Assembly: GCA_028689495.1 (NCBI GenBank)
Contig: JAQTWB010000010.1
Location: 1-62,272 of the forward strand
Length of the DNA stretch: 62,272 nucleotides
Origin: a bacterium
Lineage (GTDB): Bacteria; Bdellovibrionota_C; UBA2361; SZUA-149; JAQTWB01
Direction: 5' to 3'
The notes beneath the pieces were generated by a model. It ran no database searches, was not told where the DNA came from, and saw only the letters and a list, made by a program, of their open reading frames with translations. Both the position numbers and the translations under genes were made by a program. Positions 9,762-52,215 of this stretch are shown piece by piece. Numbering within the stretch: the first letter of the stretch is position 1; every line of letters starts with the position of its first letter.

Positions 9762-9910
9762 TAACCTCAAAATGGGAGTGTTGCGAAATTAGCATTTCGC
9801 CAGGATTGACTTCCGTCAATCCACTTTTTCGCATCTACGATACGAAAAAGTCTCCCCTCTATTAGTTTTTCTTTTGTAGGGCCAAAATGGCCCTACATTT
9901 ACTGCGCTTG
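9762..9910. repeat. Repeat family B, copy 1: a ~150-bp structured element with three hairpins (gcgaaat-tagc-atttcgc; ttgac-ttccg-tcaa; gtagggcc-aaaat-ggccctac).
   Basis: Near-identical to 45554-45693. The two copies bracket the ~36-kb defence/accessory segment. Confidence 0.65.
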
Positions 9911-10013
9911 GTATTCTTTTTAGCGCGCAGGCATCCAGCTTACGCTGTCTGCATTTTGGGTGTGGTGTTCAACAGACCCAAAATGCGCCGGGGAACGACG
10001 GAACTCTCGCAAC

Positions 10014-20362: not shown

Positions 20363-21373
20363 TCATAAATACTTTTCTTTATTTTCCTGGCAATGCGTCC
20401 GGACAACATCAACCCAGCGTTCATACCAATGCCAAGACGTGCCAGCCACAAGGGAGCCGTAGCCCTTGACAGTATTTCTTGCGTCAAGAGATTGCCAGAG
20501 TTTTGTGTGATGATGCATTAAAAAGCCCGAATATCCCTCGGATCTCATCAAATCTACAATTTGCTTTGGCAGATACTTCTTCTTTTCGGTCTCTTTGATT
20601 ATTTTGTATTCCTTGTTTACCGCCTCCGCCAAAGCCGAATCGCTTTGTACAAACTCGATAACACGATCCGCCTGGCCTTTATGATTGGCTGTTTTAGGAA
20701 CGAACAATATGCGATAGGCGTAGCGCGGATTTGAGAATTCATCGTCCGACAATTCAGTATCAAAATCTTTAATGTAACCTTGTATGTTAACTGGTAACCC
20801 GGGATGCTCCTCGAGCAGTTCCTTTTGCTCGGTCGAGATCGTTGAAAACTGTAGACTGAACGAGAGATGCCTTTCTATTCCGTTGTTGACCCCGAACAAT
20901 TTTTTGATGTACTCGTTGTAATTCAGTCCGCAGGCCTGAAAACGAGCGCTCAATATATCGTCAATTCGGGTTGTCATTTGGTGTTCAATTTCGTGCCGCA
21001 ACCCTATCAGGAATCTCAGGTTATTGGCCGTATCCTTATCAATAGGACATTTAGCATCATTCAGACAACGCTCAAGCTCCCAGTACTTGTATGCGCCATG
21101 TTTGGTTCTATCGAATTCACGACGTTTACCGCTCTGGCGGCAATATCGATACTCAATTTTTTGATCACGGAAATAGGCGTGAAGCAGATATGTCCAGGCG
21201 ATAATCATCAGCACCACATAAGATTCAGACTTGAAGCCTATGTTAGGGTTGTTAAATATCTGTACTGCTGCAAGAGCAGCCTCTCGAGACTTCTTGAGAA
21301 GTTCGCTCTTGATAGCACCGACACGCCGAAGCCGTTTGCTCATTATGCCGTCTCCTGGACCTTCTGCTGCCAC
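20363..21373 (-). CDS. Hypothetical protein with a HEPN-like Rx4H motif (GLRHEIEH). Cargo module 3, gene b.
   Basis: 336 aa. Predicted helical N-terminal region (AVQIFNNPNIGF...) and RHEIEH matching the HEPN Rx4-6H pattern. No other recognised family. Confidence 0.4.
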   Translation of the reverse strand: MAAEGPGDGIMSKRLRRVGAIKSELLKKSREAALAAVQIFNNPNIGFKSESYVVLMIIAWTYLLHAYFRDQKIEYRYCRQSGKRREFDRTKHGAYKYWELERCLNDAKCPIDKDTANNLRFLIGLRHEIEHQMTTRIDDILSARFQACGLNYNEYIKKLFGVNNGIERHLSFSLQFSTISTEQKELLEEHPGLPVNIQGYIKDFDTELSDDEFSNPRYAYRILFVPKTANHKGQADRVIEFVQSDSALAEAVNKEYKIIKETEKKKYLPKQIVDLMRSEGYSGFLMHHHTKLWQSLDARNTVKGYGSLVAGTSWHWYERWVDVVRTHCQENKEKYL

Positions 21374-22635
21374 GCCAGCACTAGGGCTTTGCTACCCCTA
21401 GCCGCCTCTTGAATAATTGTTGCTAATGCTGCTGTTTCGGCTTTGTGCGTTCCGATATAACCGGAACGGATCAAACTGAGCATGTCGGCTTCTCGGAGAT
21501 AGGTTCCATCCAACGCTTTGTAACTGAGACGAACGCCACCCTTAGGGCCTCTGGCCTCAGGGGCAGCAAGGATCTGGTTCAGATGGTCGAGAGAGACAAG
21601 AAACGATTGATGCGTATCGTCTACGATCTTGCGCTTCACAAATTTGAAGAAAAATGGATTGCGGCTCAGCCTGTAGTCACTCAAAGAACCATCAAAGTCA
21701 GGAAGTCTCATGCGGGCAATTTCATCGCGCAACTGCTTGTCAGGACGAAACAACCAATCACGGTTTTCACTCTCTTGCTTGTCTTCCTCAAGCATCTTGT
21801 ACTGGAGCATAACAATATTGCCCCGGGTTTCGTTGATGTAGATGAGGTCAACGCCCAGCATCTGCTCCAAGGGCAATTTGTTAGCGGTGTAAATCACCAG
21901 CCGTTCGTCAGCCCTTTGAAAGACGGCTCGCCCGGTCACATCAGCGGAGATCGCATCGAATCCGGGGAAGCGCAATGAATCCGAATGCACTACGTTGTCC
22001 TCAAAGAGGTGAGCTCCGATAAGACCAAGACCAGATGATGCGCCCTTCTTGAGGGTAACCTGATCCGGTATGGCACTGCCCCGAATTCCAAAAGCTGCCA
22101 TTGCCGACTTAATGGCATCCTCCTGTGCCCAGAAGGTGTTCGTCACGCGCCTCAACCGTGGCAAAAGGGAAAGAGCTGTATCCAGGGCAGATTGATTGTC
22201 GGAATCCGCCGCCAGAAGTTCGACCAGACGAACGCTGAGTTTGGGTGAGAGGCTTGTAATCGCTCCTTGAGCAGGTAGTCGTTTGCCCAGCAAACGCTTC
22301 ATTCGCGAATCAGTGAGCAACGCCTCTATCGACTGAAGAGAATTGGGGTTCAAGGCCCGCAGTTTCTTAATAGTTAGACGAGATTCGAAGGTGCTCACCG
22401 CCGCTTTTTTAGTGGCAGTGGCCATATAGCACTTGGTTGAATCACCTTCCTGCATTTCCAGCAAACAAAGCGTTGGCAGCTTGATAGCCAGAAGTACAGA
22501 ATGTGGTTTTACCAAAGTAAGGAGCTCGAACCCATGCTGCAAATTCTGGAAGGATTCAGACATAGCCTCATCGAAGCGAATCAAGATCAGGGGTTTCTTC
22601 TGAACCCATTTTGCGATCTTGACTGCTGCACTCAT
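21343..22635 (-). CDS. Hypothetical protein. Cargo module 3, gene a.
   Basis: 430-aa ORF. Its ATG overlaps the stop of the preceding junction duplicate (ATGA). No confident domain. A weak D...E.K pattern (GVDLIYINETRGNIVMLQYK) is noted only. Confidence 0.4.
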   Translation of the reverse strand: MSAAVKIAKWVQKKPLILIRFDEAMSESFQNLQHGFELLTLVKPHSVLLAIKLPTLCLLEMQEGDSTKCYMATATKKAAVSTFESRLTIKKLRALNPNSLQSIEALLTDSRMKRLLGKRLPAQGAITSLSPKLSVRLVELLAADSDNQSALDTALSLLPRLRRVTNTFWAQEDAIKSAMAAFGIRGSAIPDQVTLKKGASSGLGLIGAHLFEDNVVHSDSLRFPGFDAISADVTGRAVFQRADERLVIYTANKLPLEQMLGVDLIYINETRGNIVMLQYKMLEEDKQESENRDWLFRPDKQLRDEIARMRLPDFDGSLSDYRLSRNPFFFKFVKRKIVDDTHQSFLVSLDHLNQILAAPEARGPKGGVRLSYKALDGTYLREADMLSLIRSGYIGTHKAETAALATIIQEAARGSKALVLAWQQKVQETA

Positions 22636-23141
22636 TCGGCGACCTCCCTTGCAGCGCGTTTTTCCTTCAAACTCGGGTGGTGGTCGTTGATGCGGTCGCC
22701 GTCAAAGACGTGATACCAGGGGGCGGATGCGACGTCCTTGACATAGCAGGCTCTGAGGAAAAATGAACGAAACCAAATAAGATTAAAAAGGTAGCCAGAG
22801 TTTCTAGCTCCGGCATTCGCAACGAACCCAACAAACCGCCGCCGTATCGTAGTGTAGCCAGACCAGGATGGTCTGGCTACCATCGCGCTCGGGCCGTAGG
22901 GGGTTATTGGATTCATCAGCTCAATTCGTGGGGATACCTCAATAGCGGGCCCCGTCCGCTTTTCCGGCGCATAGTCGCCGAGAACCAGCAGTTCCGGCAT
23001 CCCCGCCTGAAGAATGGGAATGACGGCTTCCCACTGTCGCTCACGATCCGACCACAGAATACATGCAGGTGCGACCTGAGCCTCCGGGTTGAAAACTGCG
23101 GCATCGCGAATCAATTTCAGGAGATGATCAAGTACTCTCAT
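22632..23141 (-). pseudogene. Junction duplicate 2. It contains the pglZ 5' end (~200 bp, ~90% identical to 20140-20337), a ~175-bp spacer with palindromic E-elements, and a copy of the pglX 3' end (…VKDVASAPWYHVFDGDRINDHH…).
   Basis: The first 72 aa are nearly identical to the PglZ N-terminus (MRVLDHLLK.IRDAAVFNPEAQVAPACILW.DRERQWEAVIP.LQA..PELL.LGDYAP.KRTGPAI) and then diverge. The 3' 60 bp match the last 60 bp of pglX. Almost identical to 24688-25197. Confidence 0.7.
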
Positions 23142-23144
23142 ACG

Positions 23145-23681
23145 TCACGTTTCCTGTGCACTGTCTATGAGGCCATATGTTGTGGCCAGTGAATCATTAA
23201 TAACAGCTACAGAGACTGGCGAAAGTCCCCAGGTCTTTATTGTCGATCGTAAGGCTTTTAAAAGAGCATCATGCAACGGTGGCAACCATGCATCCTTATG
23301 CCCGTTGATGACCAAAACAAACTTCGCATCCGCTTGTGACAAATCGAGTTTCTTAAATTCATCGGGTAATTCCGAGGCAGCTTGCGGATGCCGTCTAAGA
23401 ATTGCTGCCCATCCCAAAGAAAAAGCATTGACGAGTTTCTCTCGGATTTCGGCAATAAAATCATCAAAGTTCGGCTGAGTTTTAGGGTGGGGCGTGCTGG
23501 ATTTAGCCTCAACAATCCAAATAACTGATTTACCGTTACTTACTTGCAACAGCAGAAATTCCGCCATCTGGACATGATCTTTAATTGCGGCATAGCAATT
23601 ACTCTTTTCTACACGAAAACAATAGCCATCCGGGTAAGGACCAAATGTCATATCAGATTCGATAATAGGTTGGGTCGTCAT
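23145..23681 (-). CDS. Hypothetical 178-aa protein. Cargo module 2, gene b (partner of the ATPase).
   Basis: The ORF overlaps the ATPase gene end by 4 nt. No recognisable motif. Confidence 0.4.
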   Translation of the reverse strand: MTTQPIIESDMTFGPYPDGYCFRVEKSNCYAAIKDHVQMAEFLLLQVSNGKSVIWIVEAKSSTPHPKTQPNFDDFIAEIREKLVNAFSLGWAAILRRHPQAASELPDEFKKLDLSQADAKFVLVINGHKDAWLPPLHDALLKALRSTIKTWGLSPVSVAVINDSLATTYGLIDSAQET

Positions 23682-24691
23682 TTGAGCGTCAACCCCACTT
23701 CTTCTTTATACAGACGAATCGACTCATCGATTATCGGGTTATCAGGCATTCCGCTCTTCAGATCAGAGGTCTCCCATTTATTAGTGGAGGATGAGATAAC
23801 AGGAATGGACACTCCCTTTTCCTGGGCCAGAAGATAGAGCTTTTTCACCACAAAATACGAGTGGCTTGCGAGAAAAAACTGAATGCCGCGCTCCGCCAGT
23901 ACGGCGATAATATCTAGCAACTCGGAGATCGCTGTCGGGTGGAGCGCCGACTCCGGTTCATCAATAAAAACAATCGAGTGGATATCCAGGTAACGGTTAC
24001 TCAGCAAGGTATCCAGAATGGCAATCTTCTTGATGCCTTCCGCTGTTACACCAATAGGAAACTTCTGATTACCCTTTTTAAACTGCCAGCGTCCTGAAAC
24101 TTCATCGTATTCAACTTTGCCGCCAAACATATCTTCCAACCGTTTTCGTGAATCGGAAAATTCCTTAAAATTTTTACCACGCTGTGGCAACTGTCTTAAC
24201 GCGCGAGTTAGATCGAGATACGTATCATCAAAGCCAAATAATTTATCCTGCTCGCGAGATTTAAGAATAATCTGATGCAGCGACAGCACCTCTTTGGCCG
24301 GCAAAAAAATAGAATTGCTGCTTCTAGGTGGGATGTGATTTTCCAGAGATGCGATCTGTTTAGTTGTGTCTTTTCTGAATTTATAGCTGAATCCGTTGCG
24401 CTCAAATTCCATCTCAAAGGACAATGATCCGTCAGCACCTTTTGTCACAAGCTCGCCAATTTTGTCGGCTTGAAAGGTCCAGTATAACTTGTCGGCAAGA
24501 ATCTCTGACGCGGACTTGAGCTCATCACCACGTTTATACTCCTCTATTGTTCGCATTGCGGAATAGAGAGCTTTTAAAAGAAACGTCTTACCTGTACTGT
24601 TGCCTCCTAAAACCAAGTTAATTTTACCTAACTGATTCCAGTGAAGGTCGGTCAAAGGTCCGAAGTTTTTGAGTCCTATCTTGTTAATCAT
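23678..24691 (-). CDS. ABC-type (AAA_21/SMC-like) ATPase. Cargo module 2, gene a.
   Basis: Walker A GGNSTGKTFLLKALY; Walker B/D-loop IVFIDEPESALHP; H-loop LASHS. 337 aa, the compact size of defence-associated minimal ABC ATPases. Its ATG overlaps the upstream stop (ATGA). Confidence 0.7.
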   Translation of the reverse strand: MINKIGLKNFGPLTDLHWNQLGKINLVLGGNSTGKTFLLKALYSAMRTIEEYKRGDELKSASEILADKLYWTFQADKIGELVTKGADGSLSFEMEFERNGFSYKFRKDTTKQIASLENHIPPRSSNSIFLPAKEVLSLHQIILKSREQDKLFGFDDTYLDLTRALRQLPQRGKNFKEFSDSRKRLEDMFGGKVEYDEVSGRWQFKKGNQKFPIGVTAEGIKKIAILDTLLSNRYLDIHSIVFIDEPESALHPTAISELLDIIAVLAERGIQFFLASHSYFVVKKLYLLAQEKGVSIPVISSSTNKWETSDLKSGMPDNPIIDESIRLYKEEVGLTLK

Positions 24692-25197
24692 AACTTCTCT
24701 CCCAAGCTATTCTTTTTATCTTCTAATTTCAGGTGGTGGTCGTTGATGCGGTCGCCGTCAAAGACGTGATACCAGGGTGCAGATTCCACGTCCTTGACAT
24801 AGCAGGCTCTGAGGAAAAATGAACGAAACCAAATAAGATTAAAAAGGTAGCCAGAGTTTCTAGCTCCGGCATTCGCAACGAACCCAACAAACCGCCGCCG
24901 TATCGTAGTGTAGCCAGACCAGGATGGTCTGGCTACCATCGCGCTCGGGCCGTAGGGGGTTATTGGATTCATCAGCTCAATTCGTGGGGATACCTCAATA
25001 GCGGGCCCCGTCCGCTTTTCCGGCGCATAGTCGCCGAGAACCAGCAGTTCCGGCATCCCCGCCTGAAGAATGGGAATGACGGCTTCCCACTGTCGCTCAC
25101 GATCCGACCACAGAATACATGCAGGTGCGACCTGAGCCTCCGGGTTGAAAACTGCGGCATCGCGAACCGCTTTCAGGAGATGATCAAGAACCCTCAT
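24688..25197 (-). pseudogene. Junction duplicate 1: pglZ 5' end, spacer with E-elements, and pglX 3'-end copy (…VKDVESAPWYHVFDGDRINDHH…).
   Basis: As for 22632-23141; the two duplicates are ~98% identical to each other. Confidence 0.7.
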
Positions 25198-25231
25198 GCG
25201 TCACCCGTCTTTGTATTGTTGAAAGTCTCAA

Positions 25232-28200
25232 TCATTCGCCCTCCTGTTCGTTTTCGGCAATAACTCGCCTAGCCTCTCGATCGTATCCCTCCGCCAAACC
25301 TCTTAAGATTGCTGCAAATCGCTGAAACCCTGCATTCTCAACTTTCTCGGCTTTAATTCGGAACTGTTCTGCGAATTCTCTCTCCGGCTTCCCGGTTGGG
25401 TCAACCCAACGAACACCGCGTGAGTTGTATATCCCCGTCCTGAAACCGGCGCGCATATTATCAGCTTCACGGTCATTTAATGCGTCAGCGACAGTGCGGT
25501 GTATCCATAATCCGTCTGGGTGCGGTGGGGTATGAATCAATACTTCGCCAATATTGCTGAGAGCAACTTCCAGGTGGCCGGACTCCGTACAGACTTCTTT
25601 TACCCTCTTGAGCCAGTCTATAAAACTCTCTTCGCTGAACGTTCCATCCTTCTGTGTTCCCGGCGGTGTCTTCCACTGATGCAGTAGCCGCCAGGCGTTT
25701 GCTGCTATCGCCTTTTTCTCCTCAGTGGGGTCTGTCAATGGCGGATCTTCATTTTTGGAACGGTAAATCAATCGAATGACCTCACAAAAGAACTCGGGGT
25801 CATTCGCCAGTCTGCTTTCAAGGAGTTGGGGCGCCGCTCCTCTATGATGGTCGAGCAAGGAAACATACGCCCACTCAACTCTAAAGAGGTCTTCTTCATT
25901 GACTGAAGGCTCTGCCTGAAGAAACTGGATCAATTCGACAATGTCGTGCTCGTCCATAACATAGCGCGGCTCATTGGAGGACAGCGCAGCAAGCAACGCT
26001 CTGACACATTGACTACTATCGATAGGTTGCTTGGCATGGCGCATCTTGTCCAGGCAGCCTATCGCCGCGTGTGGTCTGCCGTATTCAAGGAGCTTCTCAA
26101 CTGCCATCTCAAGATCACCATCAGCCTGATAGGCATTCGCGCCAGTGCGAGTCCAGTATTCTCTCTCTTTCGCCTGAAGCCATTCAGAGGCGCGATCCCA
26201 TGCTCCCCGAATAAACGGCAAACATGCCAGGAACTGTCCTACTTGTTCTGGTGACCAGTCGGATTTATCGATATCGTCGCACCACTCCCAGCCTTTGAGG
26301 AGATGACTCCGCCAGATAAAACCACTCACCAACGCCGTGTGCTTATCGTCCGCGGAATCCAGGAAGTGGGGCAAAAAGGTCCGCTCAATGATTGAGTCGG
26401 CAATAGCGCCAAGCGCGTGCCCTACCTGCCTGGGAGCAGAAACTGATTCGGCAAATCGAATCAAACCCTCCGCACAATCTTGCTGAAAAATTTCCGAAAT
26501 GGCCGTTTCACGTCGGGTATCGAGTTTCTTGCGCTGTTCCTCCCAATCGCCATCTTCTTCATAAAGATCGAAATCGCGATCCGTAAAAAGATGCTGATAT
26601 AAGTTGAACGGGTTGGTGGGGGCGAGTAGCTCAGCAACCTGTTCAATGCGGGTAATCAGCTCATCTGACAATGCCCATTTTGCATCGGAGAACCGGCGGT
26701 GTTTGTTTGTGAATTTTGCAAGATGGTCCCAAATCAAAAGTCGCTGCTCTTCGGGAAGCGCAGCGATGGGTAGGGAAGCAAGAACATCGAGTAGTTGATC
26801 AAAAGCTGATTTAGGCAGGTGATCAAAATGATCAATCAATGCAGAAAGCCTAGCGGTATCTTCACCAGCGGTCTCCACCGCAAGCTCCGCGTAAAAAGTT
26901 GCCTGCTGCCAATATTCTTGCGTCGTCACATCCCCCCAATCATCGGGGATTATCTGACGCCAAATTGGTTTGTGCGACCCAGAGGAAATCTGGCGCTGGC
27001 CGGGTAAAAGCTTATTAATCAAGTTCCATGCTATATCAGGATTCTCACGAAGAATTGTCTGCACTGCGGCTTGGCGCTTTTCAACCCCTGCCAGCGTTTG
27101 CGGAAACCAAGGAAGCAATATAGCGGTGAGCGAATTGAATGGTCGATTGTCCCAATTACCCCCCGGATCATGGCTGGCAAGGTCGGCAAGCGCAACACAA
27201 ACTCGAACGAGATATTGTTCATCCCATGCCAGCCCCTCTAACGCCCAAAGGAGGCCGGTCAGATAATTCCTTCCAAAAATCCCCCCATCCTCCTCATTGA
27301 AGAGGTCTACAAATGGACAAGAACTTTGCTTGAGCGCAAACTCGACCGCATCGAGAAATTGCGTTGGCGCCACTTCGGCCAAGATGGGTAATAAATCGTT
27401 GACGCTTCCCCATCTCTTCCAATCCGCCTCCTCGAAAAGCTCTCTTATAAACGAGGCGCAGATCGTCTCTGTCTTATCGGGCGAACACTGCTTACAAACC
27501 TCGGGGTAACTCCCAATGATGGCTAACCCTTCAGCAATACCCTTTCGCAGGTCCTTGGAGCTTTTTAATACTTTGCCATAAATGCTTGCAGCACTTCTAT
27601 CGTCAGCCGGCAGCTCAAATATGGGATCACTCTCCGTCATGATCCTCAGAGCAATGCTCCTAAAGGTATCGAGATCATTATCCAAAATACGCGACCCCAG
27701 CATCCTCCAAAGCTCAACTCGATTACCAACTTTCCAGATGCCGTTTTTGAGAGACAACGGACTATCAGGGGTGTGCAATATCTCCCGTGCCTTCTTGAGC
27801 CAGGCGTCATAACTGACACCGAGCAGTTCGGTTATTGCCTCACGGTCGCATTCACTCTTTTCGTTCCAGCTACCAATCAGGATTGCTTGTGTCAGACAGG
27901 TGGCGTCTGGGTGATGAGTCCACACACTGGAAATCTCTATTGCTTTTGGATTGGCAGTTATGTTTATATTGTTGACTGCCGCTTTAACCACAATAAGGCA
28001 AATTTCCGCCGTATATCGATCCGGATTAAAGTCCTCTTTCATTTGTTGATATGGATGAATGTAATTACGGAAATTTCTTAAGGTCTGACCGAACTGCTTA
28101 ACATCTTGCCTTACAATTCCAAGATCGTGTGCGACATTAATGAACTGCTCGAGACTCCAGTCTTTAAAGTCTTTGCTCTTTCCTCTCTGATCTTTCGGTG

Positions 28201-28471
28201 ATTGTGTTGATCTATTAAAGTCCGCAGGTTTCTTATTAGCCAATCCAATAAGTAGACCCTCTAATAGAGAGCCACAAAGTATAATGGTTGCCAGGGGCGA
28301 ATGTGGCAAACAACGCTGCGCTTCAATAAAACGTTCCTCAAGAAGACGCACGAGTTTTGGATCTAATAATGAAGATGGAAGAGACAGTTCTTCAACTGCT
28401 TCGGCAGCGTCTTTAGGTACTGGTGCAATTAGAAGGGTGTTCAGCTCTTCTTGCTTCATATTACCACTCAC
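25232..28471 (-). CDS. Large uncharacterised protein (1079 aa) with a possible N-terminal HEPN-like domain. Cargo module 1.
   Basis: The start codon shares its A with the pglX stop. The N-terminal ~170 aa carry GSLLEGLL...RNFRNYIHP (Rx6H). The remainder is W/L-rich and looks helical. No catalytic motif recognised. Confidence 0.5.
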   Translation of the reverse strand: MSGNMKQEELNTLLIAPVPKDAAEAVEELSLPSSLLDPKLVRLLEERFIEAQRCLPHSPLATIILCGSLLEGLLIGLANKKPADFNRSTQSPKDQRGKSKDFKDWSLEQFINVAHDLGIVRQDVKQFGQTLRNFRNYIHPYQQMKEDFNPDRYTAEICLIVVKAAVNNINITANPKAIEISSVWTHHPDATCLTQAILIGSWNEKSECDREAITELLGVSYDAWLKKAREILHTPDSPLSLKNGIWKVGNRVELWRMLGSRILDNDLDTFRSIALRIMTESDPIFELPADDRSAASIYGKVLKSSKDLRKGIAEGLAIIGSYPEVCKQCSPDKTETICASFIRELFEEADWKRWGSVNDLLPILAEVAPTQFLDAVEFALKQSSCPFVDLFNEEDGGIFGRNYLTGLLWALEGLAWDEQYLVRVCVALADLASHDPGGNWDNRPFNSLTAILLPWFPQTLAGVEKRQAAVQTILRENPDIAWNLINKLLPGQRQISSGSHKPIWRQIIPDDWGDVTTQEYWQQATFYAELAVETAGEDTARLSALIDHFDHLPKSAFDQLLDVLASLPIAALPEEQRLLIWDHLAKFTNKHRRFSDAKWALSDELITRIEQVAELLAPTNPFNLYQHLFTDRDFDLYEEDGDWEEQRKKLDTRRETAISEIFQQDCAEGLIRFAESVSAPRQVGHALGAIADSIIERTFLPHFLDSADDKHTALVSGFIWRSHLLKGWEWCDDIDKSDWSPEQVGQFLACLPFIRGAWDRASEWLQAKEREYWTRTGANAYQADGDLEMAVEKLLEYGRPHAAIGCLDKMRHAKQPIDSSQCVRALLAALSSNEPRYVMDEHDIVELIQFLQAEPSVNEEDLFRVEWAYVSLLDHHRGAAPQLLESRLANDPEFFCEVIRLIYRSKNEDPPLTDPTEEKKAIAANAWRLLHQWKTPPGTQKDGTFSEESFIDWLKRVKEVCTESGHLEVALSNIGEVLIHTPPHPDGLWIHRTVADALNDREADNMRAGFRTGIYNSRGVRWVDPTGKPEREFAEQFRIKAEKVENAGFQRFAAILRGLAEGYDREARRVIAENEQEGE

Positions 28472-31400
28472 TAAGTTAATTTCCTCGCATCGCCTTTTAC
28501 TTCCAGGGTCAAGTGGTGGTCGTTGATTCGGTCGCCGTCAAAGACGTGATACCAGGGTGCTGATTCAACATCCTTACCCCGGTCCTTATTCCAGTTGATG
28601 TTGGGTTTGTCGCGCAGGACGCCTGCGCCTTTCTTGCCGACATCGGGCACGCTGAGGAAGGGGCGGATGTTGAGGCGAACACCGTCGTTGAGATCGGGGT
28701 CCCAGCCGATGGGCTGTTTTTCCAGTGGTTTCCAGCGAACAAAGATGTCATAGGGCGCTTGGCCTTCGAGAATCAGCTCCAGCTTTTTCTTGAGGCTTTC
28801 TGCTGCGGCTAGGCGTTCCTGGGCTCCGTCCACTTTACTGGCGATGTCCTGTTTCTGGCGGCTGATCCAGTCGCCCAGATAGGTATATATCAGGGTTTCA
28901 AGCAGCTTGGCGTCGAGCTTGTGGTAGTTGACCAGGGCGGCGAATCCGTCTGGCAGGCCATCCCAGATGTGCCAGATGAAGGGGCGATGCTGGAACAGCT
29001 TGCAGTGCTGAGTGAAGAACTTCTCCCGCAGCCAGGTCTCCAGTGTCTTGCCCGCGTGATCGGCGCTTTTGAGCAGCGCGGCCAGGGGAACGGTAGCCAG
29101 ACCATCTTGGTCTGGACTTTCAGAAGAATTACCAGAGCTAGAAGCTCTGGCTACCTTGTAGGCGGCGGCCAGCAGGTTCAGCAGGCGGTCGGACGCAGAT
29201 GCTTCACCCCGTACCGGCGGGATGCAGACGATGCCGTCATCATCAGCGTAGCTAGATAGGCTTTCGCAGCGCTTAACCCATTCGCGCTGCTCCTCGGCCA
29301 GTTCCATGCTGGCATCCAACTCGGCAGGCCAACGGTAGCCGAGGAGTCGGGCAACTGCGACTTGCAGCACGGTAGCGTCGGTGCGCAGAGTTGAAGCGGA
29401 TTCCAACCGCTTTGTTTCTTCATTCCAAACTACCGAACCACACGGATGGCCGTGGAAGATCCATTGGGTGGGGTCGTTGGTGTAGGGTTTAGGGAGACCG
29501 TTCGGATATTTTTCTTCTGCGACTTTTGTCCAGCGGTCGAGGTCAAAGGGGACTTTTGTTATTGTCGCGGCGGTAACCTTTAATGCTTGGTCGACAGCGC
29601 GAACGTTTTCATGGAACACATCTGACTCTACATAAGCAAAAATTGCAGGAATAACATTCTCGGTAGATGGGCAAATCGGACATATGTTGTCATCGAAAGC
29701 CTCACCATTATAAAGAAATGGCTCTAACTTTCTCATTTTGTTGACAACAACGCCTCTACGACAAAAAACACTTTGACCGTGTAGGCGGCATCCAAGCTGC
29801 GTGTTTAGCTCGACATCATCTAAGGGAACTTTGCAAAGCTGTGAGCGACCAGTCCATGGATTTCCAGCATTTGGTGAGTTAAGCCAATAAACATGGGTCT
29901 TTTCGCCCTCGGGGAACTCCCAGAAGTACATCAAAAACCTTGGCCCATCCCCAGTTGTGCTTCCTTTTCCATAGTCAGCTATTTCAGCTAGTAGAGGCAG
30001 ACTTTGAAACTTTTCAAAGCCAACCCTAGCATCCGGATTCTCCAACTGCTTCGCTTGCTCAACGCTCTTGATTTCTGCCGTCCGCAGTTGCGCCGCTTTT
30101 TCGGTAGCGGTGCGGGGCTCGGAGACATCAACACCGCGAATCAGGTTAGGAGCAGCATCGTGGTGTGGCCTGTCGCCTTCAGACCAGAGCTGGAAGCTCT
30201 GGCTACCTTCTGCGCCACGGCTGAGGATGATCATTGCTACGAACGCACCCGCTGCCGCTGACGAATCAAATCCGCCTTCACCCAACCGCGCTATCAGATG
30301 CCAGGTGTCTCTCTTTAGCAGCTTCTCGCGGAATTTTTTGTAGCTGGTCAGGAAGAGCCAGTTCTGTGGCAAGACGATGCTGGACGTGCCGCCCTCAACG
30401 CAAAGTTCCAAACAGCGCTCGAGAAATACAGTCGCCAGATCGTTCTTCGCCGCCGGATAGTGTCTTTCGCAGAAATCCCTCAGTCCCTCAGTTTGCTTGC
30501 CTCGCGCCAGATATGGCACATTGGTGATGACCCAATGATATCGCTGTGCGAGCAGGGTTACAGCTTTTGCTACGCCGCGCGCTACCACGGCTGTCTCGTG
30601 ATGTTCAAAAGGAGCTTCGGCACCAACAGCCTGCTCCAACACCTGGCACACATCGTTCCAACCAAAACCAAAGTTATTTTTAGGCCCGACAAGCTCGGAT
30701 GCCTCTGTTTTGTGTGGGTCTATCAAACTTCCCAGTATAGGTGCCCGAGCAAATAGATCGTGTAGAATCCCCAGCGCTAAATATATGTTCTGCTTCCGAG
30801 CACCAAGTTGACGCCATTCCTCTCGACTCATAGTTACCGACAACCCAGAGCAGGCCAGATGAAGTTCAGGCAGCACACGGTAGCCACCGGCGTTCGGGTA
30901 TTTCCAGGCGGTCAGCGCCAGGGCAAAAGCGGCCAGCTCCACGCAACGCTGATCCAGTTCCAGACCATGGATGTTTTCCCTCAGCACCGCATCAACTGCG
31001 TCCCTGGCCGACAACCCCTCGCGCTCCATGCGCATCGGCACCAGCATCAGGAAGGCTGCCACCAGGAAATGGCCCGAACCGCAGCAGGGGTCGAGGATCT
31101 TCAGATCGGCAAGTTGCTCCGGCCAGCTGTCAAAGGTCCCAGCCGCCGGCATAAAGGTAGCCGGACCATCCTGGTCTGGCACCTCCAATCCAGCAAATTC
31201 CTCCGACCCGGGTGTTATGGTAGCCAGACCATCTTGGTCTGGCCTCTTCCAACGCCACTTCCAATCGCCCAACCCCGCTTTATCGGGGTTATCCCACGTG
31301 TACTGGATCTGAAAAAAATACTCTTTCTCAGACCTGATGATGTGGTTGTAAGCGTCTTCCTGCCATAAATGACCCTTTCGACCCAGATACTTATTGGCCT

Positions 31401-32760
31401 CATTAGCGGTGAAAGACTTCCAGGAATGTATAATTCCGGACAGCTCCCATCCTTGATGGGGCTCCACAATGACATGCACATGATTGGGCATTATGCACCA
31501 GGCGTGCAATTGATAACGCTCCCCATCAAAATAGCGCAAAGCATTAGCGACCATATCGGCAATATCCGGGTTGACGAGACAACATTCGCCAGCTCCCGAA
31601 TCCAGGAAAGCCTCAATTCGTTCGGAATAAAGGAACTGGATGCGCTTTTGCTCCTCTTCATTGAGGGGGCGATTGGCAAGGATAGCCTGATCTTCGATCG
31701 CTTTGCGTTCCGCAAACCAGGCATCACGTTTGGCAGAGGGGACCGAATCAGCAAGACGAAAACAAACATGGTAAATGGCCCGGTCGCAGGTCCAATGCGG
31801 TAAATTTTCGCCTTTTGTGATTGAGAGAGAAGTTTCGTCCAATCCCGGGATGCTGAGAAGGCCAGACCAGGATGGTCTGGCTACCTTTTCGCGGCACCGA
31901 TGCGTCTGTGGCTCGCTGGGGATGCCAGAGCTTCCAGCTCTGGCGACAACAAAACGCAGATAGTCCAGCGGCACACCGGGGATAGCCGCCTTCCGGCGCA
32001 GTTCCTCTTCGCTGCTGGCGTTTTTAAGGTCGGCTTCGCTGAGCCGTCTTGCCGCCCACCAGGCGCCCAAAGAGTTGTCGAGCAGGAAGCTGACCATATA
32101 GGGCTCGGTGAAGAGCTGGGTGACGGCAGGCAACTCCCTGCTGCCTATCTTAACTTCCGATTTGTTGATCCGTTCTTTATTGTCGGCCTGCCAGAACTGA
32201 TAGACCCAGCCCAAAGAATCCGAGGCAGTGAAAACCGGAAGCTCCAGATCCGCCACCAGGCGCTCGAGTTTTTGCTGATGCTCGGGTGGCAAGCTCAGTT
32301 GGAATACCGGCGAGTCGAGCCGGAAGATCTGCGGCAGCATGCGGGCAGCAAACCGGGCGGCCAGCTCCCAACCGTTAGCCGCGCCTTCATCGGCGGCGAG
32401 GTCTTCACACTCTTCGAGGGTGACTGCTACTGGATCGTCCGGGTCGGGATACATCAGCAGATTGTTCTCGGCCAAAAATCGCGCGAATAGCATGCGGTGC
32501 CAGTGCTCGTAGGCAACCTCTTCGATCAGGCGATCCATGGTTTGAATCTTGCTGCCATTGAGTGAATCACCCAGTTGCCGGCCGTGAACGCGCAGCTTAC
32601 GGCGCAGCTCCCGTTCCTGTTCGCTCAGGTGCGCAAAGGGCGCGGTTTCACCCACGGCAAGCTGTTCCAGCGCGGCTCGGGCAGCGTCCTCGGCAATATC
32701 ACGCGCATCTTTGATGGTGCGTTCGAGTCGGTTTCTCAATGTTTTGTCGAGCGGCTGCAT
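28471..32760 (-). CDS. pglX: BREX adenine-specific DNA methyltransferase PglX, enlarged to 1429 aa by in-frame palindromic insertions.
   Basis: Methyltransferase motif I DPCCGSGHFLVAAF and motif IV NVPY (VITNVPYLARGK). It sits between brxC and pglZ. At least six ~26-bp palindromes are inserted in frame. Confidence 0.85.
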   Translation of the reverse strand: MQPLDKTLRNRLERTIKDARDIAEDAARAALEQLAVGETAPFAHLSEQERELRRKLRVHGRQLGDSLNGSKIQTMDRLIEEVAYEHWHRMLFARFLAENNLLMYPDPDDPVAVTLEECEDLAADEGAANGWELAARFAARMLPQIFRLDSPVFQLSLPPEHQQKLERLVADLELPVFTASDSLGWVYQFWQADNKERINKSEVKIGSRELPAVTQLFTEPYMVSFLLDNSLGAWWAARRLSEADLKNASSEEELRRKAAIPGVPLDYLRFVVARAGSSGIPSEPQTHRCREKVARPSWSGLLSIPGLDETSLSITKGENLPHWTCDRAIYHVCFRLADSVPSAKRDAWFAERKAIEDQAILANRPLNEEEQKRIQFLYSERIEAFLDSGAGECCLVNPDIADMVANALRYFDGERYQLHAWCIMPNHVHVIVEPHQGWELSGIIHSWKSFTANEANKYLGRKGHLWQEDAYNHIIRSEKEYFFQIQYTWDNPDKAGLGDWKWRWKRPDQDGLATITPGSEEFAGLEVPDQDGPATFMPAAGTFDSWPEQLADLKILDPCCGSGHFLVAAFLMLVPMRMEREGLSARDAVDAVLRENIHGLELDQRCVELAAFALALTAWKYPNAGGYRVLPELHLACSGLSVTMSREEWRQLGARKQNIYLALGILHDLFARAPILGSLIDPHKTEASELVGPKNNFGFGWNDVCQVLEQAVGAEAPFEHHETAVVARGVAKAVTLLAQRYHWVITNVPYLARGKQTEGLRDFCERHYPAAKNDLATVFLERCLELCVEGGTSSIVLPQNWLFLTSYKKFREKLLKRDTWHLIARLGEGGFDSSAAAGAFVAMIILSRGAEGSQSFQLWSEGDRPHHDAAPNLIRGVDVSEPRTATEKAAQLRTAEIKSVEQAKQLENPDARVGFEKFQSLPLLAEIADYGKGSTTGDGPRFLMYFWEFPEGEKTHVYWLNSPNAGNPWTGRSQLCKVPLDDVELNTQLGCRLHGQSVFCRRGVVVNKMRKLEPFLYNGEAFDDNICPICPSTENVIPAIFAYVESDVFHENVRAVDQALKVTAATITKVPFDLDRWTKVAEEKYPNGLPKPYTNDPTQWIFHGHPCGSVVWNEETKRLESASTLRTDATVLQVAVARLLGYRWPAELDASMELAEEQREWVKRCESLSSYADDDGIVCIPPVRGEASASDRLLNLLAAAYKVARASSSGNSSESPDQDGLATVPLAALLKSADHAGKTLETWLREKFFTQHCKLFQHRPFIWHIWDGLPDGFAALVNYHKLDAKLLETLIYTYLGDWISRQKQDIASKVDGAQERLAAAESLKKKLELILEGQAPYDIFVRWKPLEKQPIGWDPDLNDGVRLNIRPFLSVPDVGKKGAGVLRDKPNINWNKDRGKDVESAPWYHVFDGDRINDHHLTLEVKGDARKLT

Positions 32761-32769
32761 TTCTTACCC

Positions 32770-34311
32770 CTACTTCCGTATCGCTTTTAGCATCCGCATT
32801 CCTTTACGGGTCAGGCGGTATTGCTGTTTTTTGCTGCGCGGTGCTTCGGGAAGTGTTCGTTCCAGAGCGGCCACTTCCTCTAACAGGCGAACAATTGCTT
32901 TCTTGTAATTCCCAGTGCGTGAAGAGTAACCGAGAATGCTTAGCAGCTCGGTTGAACCTCTCGGAAAGGCTTCACATGCCTCCAGGATCTTTCGCTCTAT
33001 TTCGCTCAACTCATGGGCCTCATCATGGGCCTCATCATGGGCTATACCGAGTGACTCGGGGTGAACTGGCAAACGAAAGAGGAAGTAACTGTGCTCTTCA
33101 TCTGTTTCAAATATTGGCTGGGGCGAACCGTTTCTTTCAACGGCGCGCATGATCTTGGGAATGCCGGTTGAGCGCCCCTCAGTCAGATCTAACTCTTTAA
33201 AGAACTCACCAATTCGACGATTCCTGTAGCGACGGCTAATTGCCTTGCCCATGCGCAGGTCCGCCATTCGGATCGAGCGATCCGGGCCGGGAAAACTAAG
33301 AATTACCAGTTCATCGGGTGAGATACGGACCTCTATGGGTTCGCGCTCTTCGTAAGAGCGATGATAAACAGCGTTGACCAATGCCTCTTCAACCGCCGCG
33401 TAGGGAAAGTTCCAGATGCGATCAGCTTCCGCTCTGTTCGGGTGCTTGATAATGGTCTCTTTCAGATAATTTCTCTGTATGTGACTCAGGGCATCTCGCG
33501 TCATACGAGCCAGGGGCCCTGTAAACACCTTCTCTTCGAATTTATCCCCACCGGGACCGTCCGGAAACCAGACCACATCTATTTGGGTGGCGGGAAAGAA
33601 TGATTCAGGGTGCTCATTAAAAAACATCAGCCCGATATTTTTGGGAAAAGCGGCTTCGGTTCGCCCACCAACAACATTCATTTGGCGGCCAAGTGCCTCG
33701 ATCGATATCGTCGAAGCATCATCTGCGAGATCGCTGCCAACCTCGCGCAAAAACTCTTCGATCAACCGCGGGGATAGATCCTCCATGCTCGCCCTTTGAT
33801 TGTATCGATCGTCGAATGGAACAGTTGCCGCCAAACCAATCAACTCACGCTCATCATCATTCCTGGCACGTACCGTGCTCGATTGCCTGCGAATGTAGTA
33901 GGCCCAGTCGGAGGACGTTTCCGATAGGCTTACTCGCGCTTTGTAGGGACGTGTTTCACCGCCGGGGGCCCAGATCGCAAGTATCATCTTGCCACCAATC
34001 GTAATCGGCGAAGTTAGCGGATGATACGCCGGTTGAATGGCCTGGTGCCCAAGCCTGAGTATCTCTTTCTGGATCTCATCGACCTGATTCTCGGCAATCC
34101 CCTTCGGTGGCAAAACAGGTTGTCCTTCGCGCTCTTCCACTCCGATGAGGATGTAACCGCCGCCTAGATTATGAAAATCGTTGGCAAATGCACAAATCGA
34201 ATGCAGGACATCCTGCGGGTTCCACCCTGCCTTAAACTCAAGTCGTTCCCATTCGACAGACTTGCCATGTAAAAGGTCGTCGACAGCTATTGGCAAGGCC
34301 AGTGTGCTCAT
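32770..34311 (-). CDS. AlbA_2 (Schlafen-like) plus HATPase_c_4-type protein, of the kind often annotated 'RecG-like helicase/transcriptional regulator', embedded between brxC and pglX.
   Basis: The N-terminus (LHGKSVEWERLEFKAGWNPQ...FANDFHNLGGGYILIGVEE) is typical of the AlbA_2 domain. A C-terminal wHTH-like region is present. The start is chosen at MSTLALP (34311), whose ATG overlaps the brxC stop (ATGA). Confidence 0.55.
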   Translation of the reverse strand: MSTLALPIAVDDLLHGKSVEWERLEFKAGWNPQDVLHSICAFANDFHNLGGGYILIGVEEREGQPVLPPKGIAENQVDEIQKEILRLGHQAIQPAYHPLTSPITIGGKMILAIWAPGGETRPYKARVSLSETSSDWAYYIRRQSSTVRARNDDERELIGLAATVPFDDRYNQRASMEDLSPRLIEEFLREVGSDLADDASTISIEALGRQMNVVGGRTEAAFPKNIGLMFFNEHPESFFPATQIDVVWFPDGPGGDKFEEKVFTGPLARMTRDALSHIQRNYLKETIIKHPNRAEADRIWNFPYAAVEEALVNAVYHRSYEEREPIEVRISPDELVILSFPGPDRSIRMADLRMGKAISRRYRNRRIGEFFKELDLTEGRSTGIPKIMRAVERNGSPQPIFETDEEHSYFLFRLPVHPESLGIAHDEAHDEAHELSEIERKILEACEAFPRGSTELLSILGYSSRTGNYKKAIVRLLEEVAALERTLPEAPRSKKQQYRLTRKGMRMLKAIRK

Positions 34312-37300
34312 ATGATCACTGGCCCCTGATCGATCTGTTCGTTTAGAGCCGCTCCAGCCTGAGCCAACCATTTCTCGACATCCTCCTTCGTCTTCAACGT
34401 CGCCGACGGCAGCCGGGCTCGCTGCGACTTTGGTTCAAGTAACTGTGCCGCTTCCAAAAGGATTGATTGATAACGGCCATCCATAGCCGCAATACGATCC
34501 CTTAACGAGGGCAAAGGATATTTATCAAGTGTATTCAGAATTGATTGAGTATCGGCCACATCGAATTGCGGCGCTCCCTGGCTGGTTAATCCCTGTGGTT
34601 CACGCAGAGCATGCCTTTGCTCGGGTTCAAGCTGTTTCCAGTTCGCATCTGTTTCAAGCTGCTGCTCTCCAGCATCCAAATGGCGCTTCCAAAGGTTTTG
34701 CAGGCAGTTCAGCTCTTGTCTAAATAATTGAGTAATACTGGCAAGCAATGGCGCAACCGGATCCGGATCTTCAAGTAGAAGCCGTTGCTGCTCAATAGTC
34801 ATCACCTGGGCCAGGATAACTTCAGCGTCCTGAAGCCCGGAAGCGTGATTCATCAGACGCTTCAAGACAATCCAGTTGGGCCAGCGCTTGGCGATGCGCT
34901 CGGCGAGATCGGTCCAGCTATCGATGCTGCTGCAAAGTTCATCACGCCGGTTGTAGAGGGCCAGCAGTTGCTCATTACCTGCTGTGCGGCGAATTTCATC
35001 GACGGATGTGGTATCCGGACAAATAGGCTTCGGAGCCTCACCACCTGCCTGGCCGGCCAGTTCCAGCATTTTCTGGAGAAACAGCGGCACGTGAACCAAT
35101 TCCTCGCCCTGCTTCGCCGAAAGGCCGACCTTTTGCAACAGCTTGCGGATCTGGATGCGTTGGGCAGTGGTGACAGTGGCGGATTCCACTTTAAACATCA
35201 CCTTGCTAATGGCCTTGCGCTCCAACTCCCTGGGGTCGAGGGTTTGGCCACGCTCGTCTTGCGCCCGGATCAGCCCAGCCACCAATAGCACTAGGAGACC
35301 GCCATCAATCGCATCGCGGGACCAGCCATAGGGTGAGGCATCAAAATGAGCGCGGATATCCAGGCCTTTCTTGCCACCAGCGATAAAGCCGAGAATAGCT
35401 TTGCACACAGTGTTCTTTGCGGGTTCCCCCTCGTCACCGACCGCCTTGAGGGCATCGGGAGCACCTTTTTGGGCTTTTTCATACACCTTGGCCCAACCGA
35501 CATGATCGGCGGTATGGAACTGCGGGTAGAGCCGTTGCAAAGCGTTATCCGAAGCTTCGAGGATCATTTCCTGCAGATCATTGCCAACTATTTCATTACC
35601 CCCGCCCTGAAAGACGCGGGCTCCAGAGAGGGCTTCATTGAGCAGTTCGCGAATCTTACCTTCAGAGGTCTGCTTGGTAGTCTCCATCGCCGCTCGGGCT
35701 TCGCTGCCTTCTGGAGTATTAGGCGCTCCACGATTGTCCAAAGTGGCGCTGGCGGCCTTGAAATAGATGAGGTGGCGGCGAAGGTCGTCAGCCGCACGCT
35801 TGGGGATAAAGACAAAAACGGTCGGTGACTGATTGCCCGCTTGTCTTGCATCAGCCCGCACCGAATTTTCGTCGATACTCCAGCCATCGCGAACCCAGAC
35901 ACAAATTTTCTGATTGGCGTCGTTGGGCAACTGAGCGTCAAACACCGGATGGATCTCGCGCGCGACTTTCGCATGCCCCTGGACCAAAGAGAGCTTGCGC
36001 ACCATCTCGCCGAATCGATTGCGGATGCGGTCATCGCGTTCTGTCTCAATGCGATGAGCTTCGTTGGACAAGGCGGAGCGCTGGCTTAAGAATTCGTCGT
36101 TCCAGGCTGCGCTTTCTTCAGTCTGTATACGGTATTCATCACCGACCTTCATCAACAGATCGCAATCATCCAACAACCGGGGCAACTTGCTGCGCAAACT
36201 ACTACTGCCGTTGGAAAGATCTTCGACCAGTAGATCGGCAAGGCTATCTATAGAGGCCCGGATGCCGATTTCGTTGTTATGGCTGCCAAGCTTGTTAATA
36301 AGGAACACTAGCCCACAGGCGCGGGCCACCAGTCGTTCGTCTTCAGTACCCTTTATCCAGCTCATCGTCCTCTCGTGAACCTTGCGTGGCAGAATGCGAG
36401 ACTGGAGCAATTTGTCGGCGGAGTCGAAGTAGAGATAGTCAGCCGGCACTACATGACCTAATGGTTCACTCAGCTTGGTCTGGATGACCTTGTGCACCAT
36501 GCTGAGCTGGTTACGGAGCTGGCTATCTGTTCCGGTCTGATCGAGGACCCGCAGTGTGTTTTCCCAAAAACGACGGCGCACTGGCAGAATGGGATAGTCC
36601 TGAGGGAAATGCTGTATATCGTTTTGCCTGTGCCCAATTGTCGTTCCCGCCAGATGTCGGGAGATTTCGCCCAGGTTTGTTTGCATGATTTGCTCGATGG
36701 GCGTCTTTGCTTCCGGCTTTTTAGCCAGAATGACCTGACGAATGACCGTATCAACGTCCGCATCGGATAGTTCCACGCGAACGGTAAAACGCCCTTCGAG
36801 TTTTTTCAGATTACTCGTGCCGGTCACCGCCGTTTGACCGGTGCCGATGAAGATAAGTTTCCCACCAATGTTTTTTGAGCAAGCTTCTACCGCCTCCTGG
36901 ACATCATGGGATCGTTGACCGTCTTCCCCAATAAACTGCTGCACCTCATCGAGAACCACCAATGTCAGGGGGAATTTGCAATCTTTCATCAGGGCCTGCC
37001 GAATGGCCTTAAGCATATCATCGCTGGAAATGTCCTGAACGTAAGGGTAGAGATTGTTCAGGGTCTCAACACAAGATACGGGCGATGAAAAGAGCTTGGG
37101 CTTAGCCTGAACCAGGGCATCATGAAGCCCCTCCGCGACATAGAAGTTGTCCAGCTCTTCGTCCCAGTCAAGGCCATTCTGCTCAACATGGGTGCGGATC
37201 TGATCATAGATGCCTTCGTGTTTGAGCCACATGACGAAGCGGGCAACCGGATATTGCTCGGGTAATCCGGCCGATTTGAAAATGATGCGCAGGAGCGCCA

Positions 37301-52031: not shown

Positions 52032-52215
52032 AGTTCCTCACCTTCTCAAGATCGGGTAATACGGTCTAACAACGTTGGCAATGATATGTAGGGGCGCTTC
52101 GAGAAGCGCCCATGTGTGACCAACCCGGCACCGTAGATAGTCAGTGTTTTTTGCAGCGGAGCTGGAGCTCCACTGCCCCACTACGCTCTCTCGCAGATTG
52201 CCAGAAATTTCGAGA

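Follow-up and report, generated by a model that had tools for sequence, protein, structure and literature searches.

The window analyzed here is a 62,272-nt contig (JAQTWB010000010.1) from a metagenome-assembled genome of the bacterial lineage JAQTWB01. Its pglX gene encodes the adenine methyltransferase (MTase) of a BREX-1 (bacteriophage exclusion) defence locus and holds seven short palindromes in a single open reading frame (ORF), which raised the question of what these palindromes are and how they came to lie inside a coding sequence. An initial annotation had described them as mini-elements inserted in frame. We consider it likely that the palindromes are GTAG-type repetitive extragenic palindromes (REPs), that four form the inverted termini of a REPtron placed in frame in a linker of PglX, with its REP-associated tyrosine transposase (RAYT) forming an internal domain of the protein, that the remaining three, a solo REP and a REPIN-like doublet, occupy permissive loops, and that the whole is a passenger.

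REP hairpins and a RAYT domain in the PglX reading frame

All seven palindromes were found where they had been annotated. Six are perfect hairpins (29097-29115, 29132-29150, 30184-30202, 31224-31242, 31862-31880, and 31925-31943), and the seventh (31161-31179) has one mismatch in its stem (GCCGGACCA). The hairpins are 19–21 nt long and belong to two types, CCAGACCA-N3-TGGTCTGG and CCAGAGCT-N3-AGCTCTGG. In the 62-kb window, the half-site GGTAGCCAGACCA occurred 12 times with two mismatches or fewer against 0.86 expected, a number reached in 0 of 100 shuffles, and the CCAGAGCT-N3-AGCTCTGG variant occurred five times against 0.03 expected. The family accounted for about half of the perfect hairpins with stems of at least 8 bp in the window, and seven of its 11 clear copies were located in the 4.3-kb pglX gene. 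A REP unit measures 23 nt, with a GTAG foot, a perfect stem of 8 bp, and a loop of 3 nt, and the copies are able to form stem-loops with 8–9-bp stems and 3-nt loops (DNA folding z-scores of -2.5 to -5.0, with -5.0 for the C-terminal doublet). The GTAG/CTAC foot was kept on six of the seven pglX copies, being degenerated to GTCG in the other, and also on the copies in two junction duplicates between pglX and pglZ.

The initial annotation recognized the inserted palindromes and missed what lies between the two pairs: PglX residues ~303–503 are a RAYT domain. It contains LPHW at aa 320, the HUH motif N426-H427-V428-H429 (31471-31485), and the catalytic Tyr487 in QYTWDNP (QYTWDNPDKAG, 31285-31305). 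Pfam family PF01797 matched the segment above its gathering cut-off (5.4e-7, 30.2 bits against 23). The best NCBIfam model was NF047646, "REP-associated tyrosine transposase" (2e-18), and its score of 66.7 bits lay below the 80-bit equivalog cut-off, which indicated a divergent subfamily; the IS200 model NF033573 matched weakly (E = 7e-4, 19.8 bits against a cut-off of 55). The E. coli TnpA-REP structure 4ER8 aligned to the segment (1.3e-4) with the HUH (H427, H429) and tyrosine (Y487) motifs matched. No other RAYT was found in the window.

Since the RAYT domain sits between the palindrome pairs, the palindromes are read as GTAG-type REPs with their cognate RAYT, that is, as a REPtron. On the coding strand its order is GTcG-hairpin, GTAG-hairpin, RAYT, hairpin-CTAC, hairpin-CTAC, so that the REPs on the two sides are in inverted orientation and turn their GTAG feet away from the RAYT, and the inner and outer REPs are 63 nt apart on both sides. 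It separates YLRFV from PAAGTFD, two segments that a linker of 6–13 aa connects in RAYT-less relatives, and its junctions read FV/VAR and AT/FMPAAG. The RAYT segment has neither an ATG or GTG start nor a stop of its own.

An AlphaFold2 model of PglX residues 1–1200 had moderate confidence overall (predicted local distance difference test, pLDDT, 68.9; predicted template modelling score, pTM, 0.37). The pLDDT of the RAYT core ranged from ~77 to 97 in 10-residue blocks and was mostly above 85, and it fell below 50 at aa 275–303 and 508–531, which are exactly the REP-encoded peptides beside the RAYT. Foldseek with the predicted fold returned BrxX/PglX structures first (8C45, 9EWZ) and then 4ER8 (E = 1.4e-5, TMt 0.66). 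The model suggests that PglX contains the translated RAYT as an internal domain with a fold of its own, connected through flexible REP-encoded linkers. The coordinates of all these features are given in Table 1.

Table 1. Location of pglX, its REPs and nested REPtron, and the junction REP doublets in the window
Feature	Coordinates	Strand	Description
pglX (BREX-1 adenine methyltransferase)	28471..32760	-	One 1429-aa ORF holding all seven hairpins
Nested REPtron	31153..31950	-	aa 271-536, 798 nt (266 aa)
RAYT core (Y1/HUH transposase)	31252..31854	-	aa 303-503
REP, outer 5' flank of RAYT	31924..31948	-	CCAGAGCT-TCC-AGCTCTGG, foot GTCG; encodes VVARAGSSG, aa 271-281
REP, inner 5' flank of RAYT	31858..31885	-	GTAG-CCAGACCA-TCC-TGGTCTGG on coding strand; encodes KVARPSWSG, aa 292-302
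REP, inner 3' flank of RAYT	31219..31244	+	GTAG foot on + strand; encodes RPDQDGLAT, aa 504-515
REP, outer 3' flank of RAYT	31156..31183	+	Stem mismatch GCCGGACCA; encodes VPDQDGPAT, aa 525-536
Solo REP	30182..30207	-	GTAG-CCAGAGCT-TCC-AGCTCTGG on coding strand; encodes GSQSFQLWS, aa 851-862
REPIN-like inverted REP doublet	29092..29155	.	GTAG-hairpin, 16 nt, hairpin-CTAC; encodes KVARASSSGNSSESPDQDGLATV, aa 1202-1224
REP doublet, junction duplicate A	22790..22881	.	At joint of pglZ 5' fragment, REPs, pglX 3' fragment
REP doublet, junction duplicate B	24846..24937	.	Duplicate B 96.7% identical to A

The reading frame of pglX was unbroken, and the peptides quoted in the initial annotation were correct. 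The REP copies in the gene occupied all three reading frames, and the frame containing TAG was used only where that side had no GTAG foot. The spacings of same-type tandem REPs inside ORFs were 63, 63, 66, 66, 33, 30, 24, and 24 nt, and all eight were multiples of three, unlike those in an intergenic REP array of the related locus L001, which had a 125-nt period. The MTase motifs of PglX were intact, with motif I (DPCCGSGHF) at aa 557–565 and NVPY at aa 747–750, and full-length BrxC, PglZ type B, and BrxL, all three above their family cut-offs, adjoined pglX. The spacings in threes, the intact motifs, and the full-length partners together suggested that pglX is under selection to stay translatable and that PglX is probably working. 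Between brxC and pglX there was a gene for a Schlafen AlbA_2/HATPase_c_4 protein (32770-34371, minus strand), and a similar gene was present in the BREX loci of L002, L004, and L014.

Insertion sites and orthologous PglX proteins

The best family for the window protein was the PglX model NF033452 (1.2e-99), with 334.7 bits under its 500-bit cut-off, and 8C45 and 9EWZ were the top structural matches. It was 288 aa longer than its closest RAYT-less relative, the Limisphaerales protein P0013 (1141 aa). The initial annotation had attributed this size to the palindromes, which encode only ~80 of the 288 extra residues; the RAYT contributes ~200. By site, the REPtron added ~255 net residues (RAYT core ~200), the hinge REP ~6, and the C-terminal doublet ~17, the latter being missing from relatives.

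The insertions fell in loops or linkers, as the initial annotation had suggested checking: pLDDT was below 50 in the two REP-encoded flanks given above and at aa 813–885. According to alignment, the REPtron site corresponds to residues ~270–300 of Salmonella PglX (8C45), immediately before motif I, the solo REP maps roughly to the hinge between the MTase and the target recognition domain (TRD; E. coli BrxX 638-675), and the doublet maps to the C-terminal domain. In other PglX proteins, lineage-specific repeat peptides gathered at the same approximately six positions. The domain order of N-terminal domain, MTase, TRD, and C-terminal domain, the conserved motifs, and the synteny with brxB, brxC, pglZ, and brxL are those of BREX-1 PglX/BrxX (8C45, 9EWZ). 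Unlike these two structures, the window protein has a 266-aa REPtron before motif I and REP loops at about the MTase–TRD hinge and in the C-terminal domain.

Comparison with orthologues addressed whether these peptides are inserted or native. In its N-terminal domain P0013 shared 94% identity with the window protein, and the corresponding value for the C-terminal domain was 89%; a 10-aa linker (QQEDDAGNKH) occupied the REPtron site. Neither REP-like hairpins nor REP peptides were found in its pglX (locus L013). The orthologues that shared the peptides also had the palindromic DNA, contrary to the refuting case named in the initial annotation, shared peptides without palindromic symmetry in the DNA. 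Locus L001 contained both hairpin types, with eight copies in frame in pglX and 13 of its 21 copies outside ORFs, and L015 had two hairpins on either side of its RAYT. Among 80 metagenomic pglX loci, the density of perfect hairpins was 0.84 per kb of ORF in the genes with a nested RAYT or DUF559 nuclease (n = 6), and 0.067 per kb in those with neither (n = 74; flanks 0.072 per kb). Thus, the hairpin-free P0013, the palindromic DNA of the peptide-sharing orthologues, and a hairpin density that tracks the nested nuclease indicated that the pglX elements are insertions, as initially annotated.

It is extremely improbable that nothing was inserted, and that native linker peptides are palindromic by chance or the gene is a pseudogene or an assembly artefact. 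The contig does belong to a metagenome-assembled genome, and repeats are a source of assembly errors. However, the same architecture occurred in independent assemblies from several sources and phyla, the DNA hairpins were perfect while the encoded peptides differed with the reading frame, the RAYT-less orthologue was free of hairpins, and the ORF was intact over 4.3 kb with conserved MTase motifs.

Locus L001, which shares the REP family of the window, also contained a tandem array of four REP doublets at 16577-17074, directly upstream of pglZ; each unit consisted of one CCAGACC-type and one CCAGAGC-type hairpin. Elsewhere in the window, the copies annotated at 46320-46420 and 52154-52178 turned out to be a different palindrome without a GTAG foot, and the copy annotated near 47400 was only a weak match (~47405). 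This second, unrelated family, GCAGCAGAGCT-CC/GG-AGCTCTGCTGC, lies near the mpl fragments (46336-46359, 46401-46420, and 52154-52178). The window also contained a 143-nt repeat (9772-9914 and 45554-45696, 89.6% identical) with the hairpin GGATTGACTTCCGTCAATCC, and a short tandem array with a period of ~28 nt (43609-43748). An Rfam search of the window detected no known RNA family.

Relatives of the nested RAYT and its other host genes

The best matches of the RAYT domain were stand-alone RAYTs of 200–265 aa with up to ~69% identity. The DNA around three of these (L006 from Desulfatirhabdium butyrativorans, L007, and L008) was inspected, and all had GTAG-CCAGAGC...GCTCTGG and CCAGACC...GGTCTGG hairpins on both sides, which belong to the same REP family. 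D. butyrativorans had, besides its stand-alone RAYT, a PglX without a RAYT in which one peptide is encoded by a REP of this family, which indicated that REPs can reach pglX in trans. The loop-containing tops GC-TTCCA-GC and CC-AGGAT-GG were kept on different stems in L002 and L004. Conserved loops with co-varying stems were rejected as a strict rule: in the stand-alone relatives it is the loops that differ (GTCTC, GGGAC) and the stems that are retained, and therefore covariation is not claimed as proof of structure.

Among the best 120 PglX hits, 13 had a RAYT inserted at the same point, between YLRFV and W-x-PAAGTFD, all with the catalytic residues retained, and 100 were free of inserts. In P0247, another PglX, a REPtron was found at a different permissive site, after GYRWPEE. 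The 13 RAYTs fell into two subtypes ~40% identical to each other. Subtype a was accompanied by the peptides VARPS[WR]SG and PD[QR]DGL[AV]T, and subtype b by EAASSRL, GFQPL, and KKRQDAAST with AAGCGGC-type hairpins. Such co-variation of REP type with RAYT subtype is what cognate pairs should display. In trees built by neighbour-joining only, the embedded subtype-a RAYTs were monophyletic apart from the verified stand-alone ones in 0 of 300 bootstraps. Support for individual clades mixing embedded and stand-alone RAYTs was weak (26–50%); a finer branching order was thus rejected, and only the non-monophyly is robust. The backbone of P0001 was closest to RAYT-less proteins, and the distribution of the PglX::RAYT architecture appears to be a mosaic with gains or losses.

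In other PglX proteins, a second type of insert was found at precisely this pre-motif-I linker. This was a DUF559/Vsr-like PD-(D/E)xK nuclease (PF04480/PF18741), present in P0088 (L014 10001-14083), P0020, P0074, P0078, P0089, and P0107, and also in L019, L022, and L083. It was flanked by a different palindrome, CCCCTCTCCC-N3-GGGAGAGGGG, which encoded the peptides LPSPPGRGAGGEG and LTPTPLPEGEGL, and further in-frame copies of this palindrome were found elsewhere in the same pglX genes. Judging from its organization, the DUF559 unit seems to be a second palindrome-plus-nuclease element of the same habit.

The nested state was also found outside BREX. When 1.84 billion representative proteins were searched exhaustively with aa 296–660, ~15 PglX::RAYT clusters at 50% identity were recovered, along with ~43 long proteins that matched in the RAYT part only, at an internal position. 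The hosts, in public metagenomes, included valyl-tRNA synthetase (ValRS; two cases, including P0266/L016 valS), alanyl-tRNA synthetase (AlaRS; P0292 alaS), UvrA (P0280), two DinG-like helicases (P0284 and P0308), MetH (P0364), MurC-Ddl (P0295), three GH38 mannosidases (P0303, P0267, and P0277), DNA methyltransferases, a chorismate-binding enzyme, and others. In several hosts, the nested RAYT split a Pfam domain of the host, and REP-type peptides flanked it. At the DNA level, valS in L016 contained GTAG-CATGGGC-GTCTC-GCCCATG, the RAYT, and three hairpin-CTAC/CGAC copies 24 nt apart. About 40% of the closest RAYT cluster representatives were embedded in proteins longer than 450 aa.

These cases allow a broader proposal, which we hold tentatively and with slightly less than even confidence: a RAYT/REPtron clade may have adopted an intein-like habit, with cassettes free of start and stop codons residing in host-gene loops, made only as internal domains and kept by purifying selection; the pre-motif-I linker would be a hotspot shared with DUF559, and earlier surveys would have dismissed such long proteins.

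For pglX itself, the likely course of events can be sketched by analogy with the established biochemistry of TnpA-REP and the IS200/IS605 enzymes. The RAYT would recognize the GTAG-footed hairpin (GTAG-CCAGACCAGGATGGTCTGG) as single-stranded DNA, cut at an adjacent CT/CA through a 5'-phosphotyrosine intermediate, and rejoin the strand, and this rejoining would move or copy REPs and possibly even the REPtron as a unit. Disruptive insertions in pglX would disappear, and stop-free insertions in multiples of three within loops would survive, as selection favours a functional PglX. An assumed cis-preference of the enzyme, which is made from the pglX mRNA, would explain why REPs cluster in this gene. 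The element would most likely be a selfish or commensal passenger, which uses the expression of the host gene and the horizontal mobility of BREX and is not a BREX component.

Several points weigh against the passenger reading. Within a subtype, RAYT identity tracked PglX backbone identity (r = 0.94, 30 pairs), from which it follows that nesting is ancient and has persisted in some lineages; this correlation indicates long, stable residence under purifying selection, and a co-opted functional domain would look alike. The presence of DUF559 at the same linker could mean selection for a nuclease module and not mere tolerance. A scan of 185,579 species genomes, excluding the source genome, for GTAGCCAGACC-N5-GGTCTGGCTAC yielded four loci, none near PglX or a RAYT; the exact REP is rare, so it would not be a classical high-copy REP population. 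A metagenome scan for strains with copy-number variation found no relative more than 74% identical, and no excision or empty-site variant of this locus was seen. In addition, the clustering of REPs in pglX rather than in the neighbouring long genes is explained only by the assumed cis-preference.

The first two of these points would suit a RAYT co-opted by BREX as a nuclease acting on single-stranded or hairpin DNA, or as a sensing module of PglX, with the REPs as by-products. Type IIL enzymes offer a parallel, with a nuclease domain N-terminal to the MTase. The fusion was stable in evolution, its catalytic residues were kept in all 13 proteins, and the architecture extends over the ~15 clusters. 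However, the same RAYT clade resides in ValRS, AlaRS, MetH, MurC-Ddl, and GH38 proteins, where a nuclease role is not obvious; its closest relatives are ordinary stand-alone REP-flanked RAYTs, from which the embedded ones were never separated as a monophyletic group; most of the best PglX hits lack the insert; and the flanking REPs mark the RAYT unit as mobile. Co-option is therefore considered unlikely, and a nested passenger REPtron remains the preferred interpretation.

Junction duplicates, known systems, and implications

The REP copies initially annotated in the two junction duplicates (22854-22881 and 24910-24937) were real. Each had a degenerate partner (22795-22813 and 24851-24869, respectively), and thus each junction carries a doublet. 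Between pglX and pglZ (20363-28471) there were three stacked defence-type cassettes, which encoded a 1079-aa protein, an AAA_21 ATPase with a 178-aa protein, and a 430-aa protein with DUF3644, and their joints were located at 22659-23148 and 24713-25204. Each junction duplicate consisted of 200 nt of the pglZ 5' end, the REP doublet, and ~65 nt of the pglX 3' end, and formed an in-frame chimeric ORF of 169 aa whose stop overlapped the start of the next gene. This looks like the accretion of cassettes through recombination of BREX loci with one another, the new joint being occupied by REPs. No junction duplicates were found in five other BREX loci examined.

The position of a REP doublet exactly at the pglZ'-'pglX joint of both duplicates is one reason to ask whether REPs are programmed sites of recombination or variation, serving length or phase variation of PglX, TRD exchange, or cassette stacking between pglX and pglZ. 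The tandem doublet array upstream of pglZ in L001, the REPs that bracket the variable TRD region, and the different REP copy numbers at the REPtron flanks of relatives (P0031 versus P0057) point the same way. A comparison of two PglX::RAYT proteins, P0059 and P0079, argued otherwise: they were 98–100% identical in the N-terminal domain, RAYT, and C-terminal domain and 47% identical in the TRD, which appears to be a clean example of recent exchange of a specificity module, and the boundaries of the swap were not at REPs. REPs as TRD-swap boundaries were thus rejected, the recombination tract ending elsewhere. Every variant seen kept the frame, and on/off switching was therefore without evidence; nothing supported the phase variation of PglX suggested initially, and only evolutionary-scale differences in REP copy number were found between relatives, the nearest in the metagenome scan being 74% identical. 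The lack of junction duplicates in the five other loci also speaks against programmed variation, and the REPs in valS, uvrA, and other genes are not accounted for by it; this reading is quite unlikely.

The REPtron of pglX closely resembles those in the literature (Nunvar 2010; Ton-Hoang 2012, PMC3333891; Di Nocera 2013, PMC3733652; Corneloup 2021, PMC8266576). Shared features are the HUH/Tyr Y1 fold and motifs, the inverted REPs around the RAYT, the REPIN-like doublets, the co-variation of REP type with RAYT subtype, and the geometry of group-3 REPs, for which TnpA-REP cleaves at CT/CA beside the hairpin and GTAG acts as the guide (PMC8266576). Unlike known REPtrons, that of pglX lies wholly within a host ORF, in frame, with a RAYT lacking its own start and stop, and in the DNA at hand its REPs are present in low copy number and mainly inside genes.

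In-frame intragenic GTAG REPs were described in 2013 in Opitutus terrae, a verrucomicrobium in which they were most abundant, and in Thauera and Xanthomonas; the hosts included uvrA, recB, dnaE2, and an N-6 DNA methylase, and genes of DNA metabolism were favoured (PMC3733652). The palindromes of pglX are therefore a new instance of a known phenomenon. Like those REPs and the Rickettsia palindromic elements (RPEs), they are read as peptides of 7–30 aa in proteins that are probably still functional, occur as singles and dimers with several insertions per gene, and favour proteins acting on DNA. The parallel with RPEs drawn initially was fair for the in-frame habit only, in that RPEs are of CGTC type or longer (RPE-1), specific to Rickettsia, and without a RAYT, whereas pglX has the GTAG foot, other stems, and a RAYT (PMC3733652). 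Frame-preserving REP insertions within tnpA-REP genes are also known (PMC6006769). The 2013 reports concern short repeats alone, and here the transposase gene is nested too. No description of a RAYT nested as an in-frame domain of a host protein was found in the literature searched, including papers on PglX and BREX, and in that literature this part of the finding does not appear to have been reported. A 2018 survey of Y1 transposases set aside "unexpectedly long proteins" as fusions or annotation errors, and a domain-level BREX survey of 2026 mentioned no transposase, HUH, or Vsr insert (PMC12839542).

Two other groups of mobile elements are comparable in part. Inteins and homing-endonuclease genes are likewise selfish nuclease elements in frame in conserved genes (aminoacyl-tRNA synthetases, DNA metabolism), at the same site across lineages and expressed through the host gene. 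However, a Pfam scan of the whole PglX detected no intein or Hint family and PglX has no splicing motifs. The insert presumably stays in the mature protein, and in place of a LAGLIDADG or HNH endonuclease the element encodes an HUH/Y1 transposase and ends in DNA hairpins. The IS200/IS605 elements share the Y1 HUH transposase, subterminal hairpins, single-strand "peel and paste" transposition, and a 5' tetranucleotide guide. The pglX element differs from them in its Tyr motif (Y-x-W-x-N-P, not Y---Q), its identical REPs at both ends, and the absence of tnpB and of a multicopy IS.

For REP and RAYT biology, the nested REPtron provides a concrete, recurrent case of a RAYT made only within a host protein, and it bears on two long-open questions, namely the route by which RAYTs are produced and their status as selfish or domesticated genes. 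If the broader proposal is true, pglX, valS, alaS, uvrA, metH, dinG-like helicases, and GH38 genes would all be hosts of intein-like RAYT cassettes. At present, the annotation of such proteins alternates at random between "transposase", "RayT", and "N-6 DNA methylase", and the REP-encoded peptides inflate their apparent diversity. The three PglX sites tolerate from ~10 aa up to a whole 200-aa domain, which is useful for engineering. For BREX, some PglX proteins carry an intact HUH (or Vsr-like) nuclease in a system whose effector step is unclear.

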